The notes beneath the pieces were generated by a model. That model was given only the letters and a program-made list of their open reading frames with translations. It made no database searches and was not told the origin of the DNA. From Escherichia coli (GTDB taxonomy: Bacteria; Pseudomonadota; Gammaproteobacteria; Enterobacterales; Enterobacteriaceae): 64,000 nt of DNA. Position numbers and translations under genes: made by a program. Below, one piece after another: positions 58,852 to 60,965 of the stretch (positions within the stretch are counted from its first letter, which is position 1; the number at the start of each line of letters is the position of its first letter). Where the stretch lies: NCBI RefSeq assembly GCF_030384885.1, contig NZ_CP128613.1; one strand, 5' to 3'.

Positions 58852-60276
58852 CTATGTGAAGTGACGGTGAAGTCGAAGCGAAGCCAGCACACCGCCTTGT
58901 GGCACGTTGCACAGTGTGACTTCGCCATTAAGCAAACGGGCAACCTCACTGACGAACGCCAACCCCAGACCACTACTTTTTTGCCCATTCGCACGCGGCA
59001 AAGAGTAAAAGCGCTCAAAAACACGCGACAGGGCGTAGTCAGGAATACCACTACCGGTATCCAGCACCTTAAGCGTGACGTGTTCCTGCTCCACTTCGGC
59101 GCTTAGCGTTATACGACCGCTCTCGGGGGTAAAATCGATGGCGTTATCCAGTAAATTCCCCAGCGCCTGCTCCAGTAACGCCGATTCAGCAGCAACGTTA
59201 ACCTCGGTGGGCATAACATGTAGAGTGATGTTTTTTTCCGCCAACTGCACGGTGCGCGCTTCGCTGATGCGGCGAAATAATGCCGTCACATCAACAGCAG
59301 TCAGAACGACTTCCTGACGATTCTCCAGTCTTGCCTGGCGTAGTAACGTTTCCACCAGTGCCTGCATTCGCGCATTTTGCGTCAGAATGTTGTCGGTAAA
59401 ACGAGCCACCACTTCCGGCGGCGGGCCTTCGCGTAAAATTTCCGCCGCTCCACGAATCGCCGCCAGTGGGCTTTTTAGCTCATGAGTTAATGCGTAAACA
59501 TACTGCTCAATATAGTTTTTCCCTTCCAGCTTCACGCGCATACTTTCCAGCGCCTGCGCGAGTTTACGCAGCTCGCTACTACCGAGATCGGGGAGAGGAA
59601 CGGGCTTATTGTCAGTGACGGAATCAGCATAGCGAGTGAGCCGGGCAATGGAGCGGTTGATCCACCAAACCATGCCTGCGCCAATCACCAGTGCAATCCC
59701 CAACAAAATGGCGCTGGCCCATAAAATTCGCCGCTCGCTGCGCTTAATGACCGGAGCCATCGCCGCGTTCGGTTTGCCTACGCTCAAAACGCCAATAAGC
59801 CGCGAGCCGTCCATAATTGGCGCGGCAACATACATCACAGAACTTTCGGGATCGTCAGGATTTTGCAACGTGCTGCGCGCACCATACTGACCACGCAACG
59901 TTAGCCAGACGTCATTCCAGCGCGAGTAATCCTGTCCAACGGCTTTATTTGCCGAATCGAACAATACTTTGCCCTGCGCATCGGTCATGTAGACATGATA
60001 TTCATTACGAACTTTGTGAATGCCACCGATATTGGCGCGAAACGGGCGATGTTGTAGCTGATTAAACGCCTGCGCCAGTTGCCCATGCGTTGGATCCCCA
60101 GAGAGCAAATCAGAACGCGCCAGCTCTGCCAGCAATGTTGCGGTGTCGATCAACGTTCCCTCCGTTGCTCTTCGCACGCCCGGTTTAACTTCTTTGACAA
60201 AAATTGCCAGTACGAACCAGGCCGCCACTGCCACCAGTAAAAAATAGCCCAGCAACAACCTCATGCCGATACGCAT
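58852..60276 (-). CDS. creC: Sensor histidine kinase CreC
   Basis: Two N-terminal TM segments, H-box (…LTHELKSPLAAIRGAAE…) and ATPase motifs; start at ATG 60274-60276 overlapping the creB stop (1425 bp); ORF-track start is one codon upstream. Confidence 0.93.
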   Translation of the reverse strand: MRIGMRLLLGYFLLVAVAAWFVLAIFVKEVKPGVRRATEGTLIDTATLLAELARSDLLSGDPTHGQLAQAFNQLQHRPFRANIGGIHKVRNEYHVYMTDAQGKVLFDSANKAVGQDYSRWNDVWLTLRGQYGARSTLQNPDDPESSVMYVAAPIMDGSRLIGVLSVGKPNAAMAPVIKRSERRILWASAILLGIALVIGAGMVWWINRSIARLTRYADSVTDNKPVPLPDLGSSELRKLAQALESMRVKLEGKNYIEQYVYALTHELKSPLAAIRGAAEILREGPPPEVVARFTDNILTQNARMQALVETLLRQARLENRQEVVLTAVDVTALFRRISEARTVQLAEKNITLHVMPTEVNVAAESALLEQALGNLLDNAIDFTPESGRITLSAEVEQEHVTLKVLDTGSGIPDYALSRVFERFYSLPRANGQKSSGLGLAFVSEVARLLNGEVTLCNVPQGGVLASLRLHRHFT

Positions 60277-60965
60277 CACAGTCCCCTCAGGCTATATCCC
60301 ATGCCGCGATGAGTATTAATCGGGGAAAGATCGGGGTTAATGGCGCGCAGCTTGGCACGCAGCGTTTTAATGTGGGTATCGACGGTGCGATCGTAGGTGT
60401 CCTGCGCATCTTCCCACACGCTATCCATCAGTTGCTGGCGGGACCAGACGCGGCCCGGCGACTTGAGTAATGTTTTCAGCAGCAAAAACTCATACCGCGT
60501 CAGCGTTAATGGCGTGTCAAACCAGCTGATCTGCGCCGCAGGTTCATTCAATTCAAAATGACCAATACGGATAACGGGAGACGGCGTCGAGAACTTCCTC
60601 ACCCGACGCAGTAAGGTGCGCACTCTGGCGCACACTTCGCGAGGTGAAAACGGTTTAGCCACGTAGTCGTCAGCGCCAATTTCCAGCCCAAGCAGGCGAT
60701 CGACCTCTTCACTTCGGGCCGTCAGGAACAGTACAGGTAACGCCGGATGGAGCGCCAGTAACTGGCGGCACAATTCAAAGCCGCTGATATCAGGCAAACC
60801 AACATCGAGAATCATGACATCGGGAACCTGCTGGCGAGCTTTATCCAGCACCGGCAAGCCTCGCTCAAAGACCTCGACGGCAAAACCTTCCTGTTGCAAC
60901 ATGTAGACTAGCGTGTCGGCTATCCCTTGCTCATCTTCCACTAACCAGACCGTTTCCCGTTGCAT
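60276..60965 (-). CDS. creB: Response regulator CreB (OmpR family)
   Basis: 229-aa ORF MQRETVWLVEDEQGIADTLVYMLQQEGF…. Confidence 0.95.
   Translation of the reverse strand: MQRETVWLVEDEQGIADTLVYMLQQEGFAVEVFERGLPVLDKARQQVPDVMILDVGLPDISGFELCRQLLALHPALPVLFLTARSEEVDRLLGLEIGADDYVAKPFSPREVCARVRTLLRRVRKFSTPSPVIRIGHFELNEPAAQISWFDTPLTLTRYEFLLLKTLLKSPGRVWSRQQLMDSVWEDAQDTYDRTVDTHIKTLRAKLRAINPDLSPINTHRGMGYSLRGL

Follow-up and report, generated by a model that had tools for sequence, protein, structure and literature searches.

Start and stop codons share letters at several gene junctions in the E. coli DNA analysed here, creB/creC among them. The question is whether such overlaps mark genes whose translation is coupled, and how far they settle where the downstream gene begins. 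The window, meaning the whole 64,000-nt stretch that was analysed, is E. coli chromosome running from kefC to thrL and then from yjtD to trpR, with gene order reversed relative to K-12. Junctions were read in the sequence and then compared with two annotations, PGAP (NZ_CP027579.1, strain 2013C-4282) and curated K-12 MG1655. Compared end to end with 2013C-4282, the window has 11 substitutions but no indels, and all of the junctions discussed are untouched; PGAP coordinates of that record therefore carry over directly. A 4-kb piece of the window is 100.0% (rounded) identical to 2013C-4282, with one of the 11 SNPs (58344) falling inside it; the same piece has 95-99% identity to nearly all of the 5,426 complete E. 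coli genomes. Conservation is given as the number of these genomes with an identical junction k-mer, and SD strength as duplex energy with the anti-SD, in kcal/mol.

The creB/creC junction has two features:

60274-60279, minus strand: creB/creC overlap; creB stop TGA at 60278-60276, creC start ATG at 60276-60274, one A common to both
60283-60291, minus strand: SD-like CUGAGGGGA within the creB 3' end; anti-SD duplex -8.3 kcal/mol

The minus-strand bases 60279-60274 are GTGATG. The overlap is of the TGATG type and 1 nt long, not of the ATGA type assigned by the first-pass annotation. Both PGAP and K-12 start creC at ATG 60276, for a product of 474 aa. The K-12 counterpart, CTGTAATG, has the stop TAA, and GTA instead of GTG; the in-frame GTG 60279-60277 of the window is a lineage-specific by-product of a rare TAA to TGA change. 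The 30-mer of the window occurs in 2 of the 5,426 genomes and the K-12 30-mer (TAATG), with its GTA, in 4,974; GTG 60279 is missing in 92% of E. coli genomes. Read 5' from the ATG, the creC frame meets a stop after six codons (TAG 60294-60292), so GTG 60279 is the sole other early start candidate. As a creC start it would give a GTGA overlap of 4 nt. It was rejected as not credible in view of the GTA of K-12, its rarity, the spacing of CUGAGGGGA (5 nt to the ATG, only 2 nt to the GTG), the CreC NCBIfam profile, whose match to the GTG-initiated ORF starts at residue 2, and the alignment of orthologues from Met1.

Three further pairs overlap at stop and start:

22680-22684, minus strand: ileS/lspA overlap, TGATG, 1 nt; ileS stop TGA at 22684-22682, lspA start ATG at 22682-22680
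2411-2414, minus strand: fixC/fixX overlap, ATGA, 4 nt; fixC stop TGA at 2413-2411, fixX start ATG at 2414-2412
98-105, minus strand: kefF/kefC overlap, ATGGATAG, 8 nt; kefF stop TAG at 100-98, kefC start ATG at 105-103

The ileS/lspA junction is the same as in K-12, and its 30-mer is found unchanged in 5,393 of 5,426 genomes (99.4%). The lspA ATG is the first start codon past an in-frame stop at 22694, and the LspA profile covers residues 1-164. No recognisable SD was found upstream of lspA; the best anti-SD duplex there reaches just -0.9 kcal/mol. At fixC/fixX, AAAGGAGU is located 9 nt upstream of the fixX start (anti-SD duplex -8.2 kcal/mol), the FixX profile spans residues 1-95 of 95, and 5,394 of 5,426 genomes (99.4%) share the identical 30-mer. 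The kefC ATG is preceded, at a distance of 5 nt, by a strong SD, CAGGAGGC (-10.3 kcal/mol). Both the KefC and KefB profiles start at ATG 105, not at the upstream GTG 177 or TTG 201; this junction is shared as an identical 30-mer by 3,194 of the 5,426 genomes.

The four overlaps agree with both PGAP and curated K-12, and in each pair the neighbours are on the same strand. The first-pass annotation had presented these as ordinary overlaps within known operons that constrain the choice of start codon; this description holds, as the four curated K-12 starts are at the positions it gave. The other two of the six overlaps that it listed, caiD/caiE and rob/gpmB, are not start/stop overlaps and are treated below. 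We take creABCD and fixABCX to be operons. The genes ribF-ileS-lspA-fkpB-ispH have been handled as a single operon (PMC10783499), and genes of the kefF/kefC type are reported to overlap by a few bases inside one operon (PMC10224563).

The window also holds near-overlaps that had gone unlisted:

51585-52524, minus strand: thrA/thrB (TGA-C-ATG, spacing +1) and thrB/thrC (TAA-ATG, spacing 0)
21627-21633, minus strand: fkpB/ispH (TAA-C-ATG, spacing +1), in the operon of ileS-lspA

The window has 44 co-directional pairs, and 8 of them have a spacing of -8 to +6 nt. Genome-wide, 707 of 2,987 unidirectional E. coli pairs (24%) do so, and the commonest spacings are -4, -1 and -8 (PMC10666635). A rough uniform model over -20 to +200 nt gives about 0.6 of 44 pairs expected at exactly -1, -4 or -8; four are observed. 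The bare stop/start motif is common and proves nothing by itself. A start codon occurs in the -4 phase at 7 of the 58 annotated stops in the window and in the -1 phase at 3 of 58, and real genes begin there only at fixC, ileS and creB. Motifs at which no gene begins include CTGATG at the stop of fixX and TTGA at those of fixB, yaaY and nhaA. In the first of these (2125-2129) the ATG is in the yaaU frame, which is closed by a stop codon before yaaU begins at 2067, and the motif is a chance one. What goes beyond chance at the overlapping pairs is that the predicted N-terminus of the downstream protein, as defined by homology, sits exactly on the motif.

Conservation of the creB/creC arrangement was followed across species, each represented by one genome, by scanning for THRGMGY, a motif of the CreB C-terminus. 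This gave at least 120 loci, including unrelated OmpR-family regulators, which were removed by keeping only loci in which the regulator reached 180 bits or more against CreB and a CreC homologue lay downstream. The orthologue sample consists of the matches listed, and its species are not phylogenetically independent. Among the matches listed there are 55 creB-creC pairs in which the tblastn alignment opens at CreC Met1 and meets a start codon there (53 ATG, 2 GTG); the aligned N-terminus in these 55 species is M(R/K)IG(M/L)R. Overlaps of -4, all NTGA, account for 17 of the 55 pairs among these matches, and overlaps of -1 for 12 (6 TAATG and 6 TGATG). This places 29 of the 55 listed pairs at -4 or -1, and 34 (62%) within -8 to +6. 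The -1 overlap is kept in all 11 of the non-Serratia Enterobacteriaceae listed (Escherichia, Citrobacter, Enterobacter, Lelliottia and Kosakonia), with a stop that alternates between TAA and TGA. Elsewhere among the matches listed, ATGA is found in Serratia, many Oxalobacteraceae and methylotrophs; Burkholderia and Cupriavidus have spacings of +6 to +15, and some Comamonadaceae have larger gaps. The full range among these matches is from -4 to more than +100 nt. The creB-creC overlap appears from this sample to be favoured, not obligatory; many orthologues are at +6 to +15 nt or more, and the system therefore seems to work without overlap.

The overlaps at creB/creC, ileS/lspA, fixC/fixX and kefF/kefC probably belong to the ordinary operon-internal class of gene pairs coupled by termination-reinitiation. 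A ribosome ending creB, ileS, fixC or kefF would stop on the next start codon or a few bases past it. Staying on the mRNA, it would reinitiate at creC, lspA, fixX or kefC, and the SD within the last codons of the upstream gene would aid the restart at kefC, creC and fixX. As lspA lacks an SD, ileS/lspA would be the pair likeliest to depend on coupling. It is conceivable, if doubtful, that lspA, which is essential, is translated only by ribosomes fresh from the 938-codon ileS; this is suggested by the missing SD together with a start that falls right on the ileS stop in over 99% of genomes.

Coupling has been measured in comparable pairs. Of five native E. coli pairs with -4 overlaps, four showed coupling, most of them with an influence of the SD, while bioBF was uncoupled and initiated independently (PMC6728339); the set tested includes no pair of this window. 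Coupling also drops steeply with distance and is almost abolished at about 20 nt (PMC10666635). The window pairs resemble the coupled overlapping pairs of the ATGA/TGATG/TAATG class (Huber et al. 2019, 2023) in that they are co-directional operon neighbours with overlaps of 4, 1 and 8 nt, and three of the four (all but ileS/lspA) have an SD within the upstream ORF, a feature that is usual in E. coli without being obligatory. They differ in that coupling was measured in that class and is predicted here. Overlaps are also enriched among genes for partners of a complex; here only kefF/kefC, and probably fixC/fixX, are of this kind, and ileS and lspA are functionally unrelated. A literature search for direct coupling tests of creB/creC, ileS/lspA and kefF/kefC returned only general statements or unrelated papers (mostly on fungal creB/creC and on lgt-thyA coupling). 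For that reason, dependence of downstream on upstream translation in these pairs is something that we infer from the overlaps, start positions, SD strengths and overlap conservation described above.

Neutral compaction would account for the same junctions differently: start and stop codons would share letters (ATGA, TGATG), each gene would initiate at its own SD, and the overlap would have no regulatory role. We consider this possible but rather unlikely. It fits the well-spaced, strong SDs before kefC, creC and fixX, which could be strong enough for independent initiation too, and bioBF is an example of overlap without coupling (PMC6728339). The range of spacings tolerated by the listed creB-creC orthologues (-4 to more than +100 nt) is also consistent with it, and a mutational-origin model of overlap lengths exists (PMC3887535). 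Folding of the -99 to +30 region around every start in the window revealed no unusual RBS-occluding structure at the overlap junctions, which is again in keeping with independent initiation. Junction z-scores were -1.4 to +1.2, and neither z-scores nor RBS accessibility set them apart from other window genes (Mann-Whitney p about 0.14-0.15). An Rfam scan of the whole window gave no match at any junction. Against compaction, the essential lspA is nearly devoid of an SD, yet it starts exactly on the ileS stop. Spacings of -8 to +6 are found in 62% of creB-creC pairs among the matches listed versus 24% of unidirectional E. coli pairs, and the -1 overlap of creB-creC survives turnover of the stop between TAA and TGA. 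Coupling in four of the five E. coli pairs tested (PMC6728339) points the same way, and termination-reinitiation coupling is the reading that we prefer.

That some true starts lie elsewhere (creC at GTG 60279 or the internal ATG 60264, kefC at GTG 177 or TTG 201, caiE at GTG 12487), making the overlaps artefacts of annotation, is very improbable: such alternative in-frame starts are present, and the K-12 protein records of caiD and caiE are at a version above 1, i.e. have been replaced at least once, but most E. coli genomes have no GTG at 60279, CreC aligns from Met1 in the 55 listed species, profiles begin at the annotated starts of CreC, LspA, FixX and KefC and at 12508 for CaiE, and the annotated starts match SD spacing.

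The caiD/caiE junction has the following layout:

12500-12510, plus strand: caiD stop TAA at 12500-12502, 5-nt spacer CAACC, caiE start GTG at 12508-12510; no overlap

The overlap previously reported here is contradicted by the curated K-12 annotation, which like PGAP leaves 5 nt between the caiD stop and the caiE start. At +5 the genes do not overlap, yet they are in the short-distance range. Starting caiE at GTG 12487, the ORF-maximal choice, would give a 16-nt overlap with caiD; this start was rejected, as it is not supported by the CaiE profile, which runs from residue 8 of the resulting 203-aa ORF, or by the independent PaaY profile, which runs from about residue 10. Upstream, at 11606-11719, the TAA that ends caiC directly abuts the ATG of a 297-aa ORF, an apparent zero-spacing junction. 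This ATG was rejected as the caiD start: matches to the CaiD profile and to many crotonase profiles set in at about residue 37, favouring the annotated start at 11717, 108 nt downstream. Other annotated non-ATG starts in the window, besides that of caiE, are carA TTG 18255, rpsT TTG 26811, nhaA GTG 35253 and yaaX GTG 50087.

Two pairs in the window are convergent and share 3'-terminal nucleotides on opposite strands:

62528-62531, both strands: rob/gpmB overlap, palindrome TTAA, 4 nt tail-to-tail; rob stop TAA at 62529-62531 (plus), gpmB stop TAA at 62530-62528 (minus)
63736-63742, both strands: yjjX/trpR overlap, 7 nt; yjjX stop TGA at 63740-63742 (plus), trpR stop TGA at 63738-63736 (minus)

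The rob/gpmB overlap was correctly placed at 62528-62531 and described as convergent. Its listing among coupled junctions was mistaken, since it joins stop to stop on opposite strands, and translational coupling is impossible between convergent genes. Unlike operon neighbours, convergent genes have an mRNA each, translated by different ribosomes; an effect is possible only on transcription termination or interference. A scan for terminator hairpins at rob/gpmB and yjjX/trpR found none. The rob/gpmB overlap is identical in K-12, and the identical 34-mer is found in 2,180 of 5,426 genomes. The yjjX/trpR overlap had not been listed before. In K-12 these genes are instead separated by a 158-nt segment that carries REP/BIME-like palindromes, and the C-termini are slightly different from those of K-12: YjjX has an extra Q, and TrpR ends in KDH rather than KSD.

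The window also includes a hokC/mokC/sokC toxin-antitoxin module at 39618-39920, absent from the first-pass annotation, with an Rfam sok match at 39618-39770. The 50-aa hokC ORF (ATG 39768), to which PGAP gives the label MokC, is extended in frame by the 69-aa mokC ORF (ATG 39711). Translation of hok depends on mok, and this is a classic translational-coupling system. It resembles the overlap pairs of the same window in that translation of one frame depends on that of another. It differs in that an in-frame upstream ORF and antisense RNA control take the place of a stop/start overlap between two operon genes.

Several regions of the window differ from K-12 in gene content. Between rpsT and nhaR (27561-33084), where K-12 has IS1A, there is accessory DNA with a 490-aa 'type III effector', a fimbrial subunit, a frameshifted chaperone, a degraded usher pseudogene and a 319-aa hypothetical protein. 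Between nhaA and hokC (35505-39154) there are three genes missing in K-12, for an IS1/IS1595 zinc-binding-domain protein (414 aa), a sulfatase and OmpK. K-12 carries IS186A between dnaJ and mokC instead. The 237-aa gene at 43965-44678 is called 'msyB, acidic protein MsyB' by PGAP via NCBIfam NF007593; at this position the K-12 curators place yaaW (putative enzyme-specific chaperone) and the antisense-embedded mbiA, and the name MsyB may mislead. Rfam also identifies three small RNAs:

18303-18355, minus strand: ES003, upstream of carA
41155-41232, minus strand: tpke11, between dnaK and dnaJ
49686-49728, plus strand: ES036, barely over its threshold

That E. coli operons contain short stop/start overlaps, and that these are linked to translational coupling, is already well documented, and there is nothing biologically new in the junctions described here. 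Their practical value is in annotation, as the overlaps fix the starts of creC, lspA, fixX and kefC. If the longest ORF were called instead, caiE and caiD would receive incorrect starts, and so would creC in this rare lineage. If lspA is indeed translated only by ribosomes that have just completed ileS, output of signal peptidase II would be strictly tied to translation of isoleucyl-tRNA synthetase.
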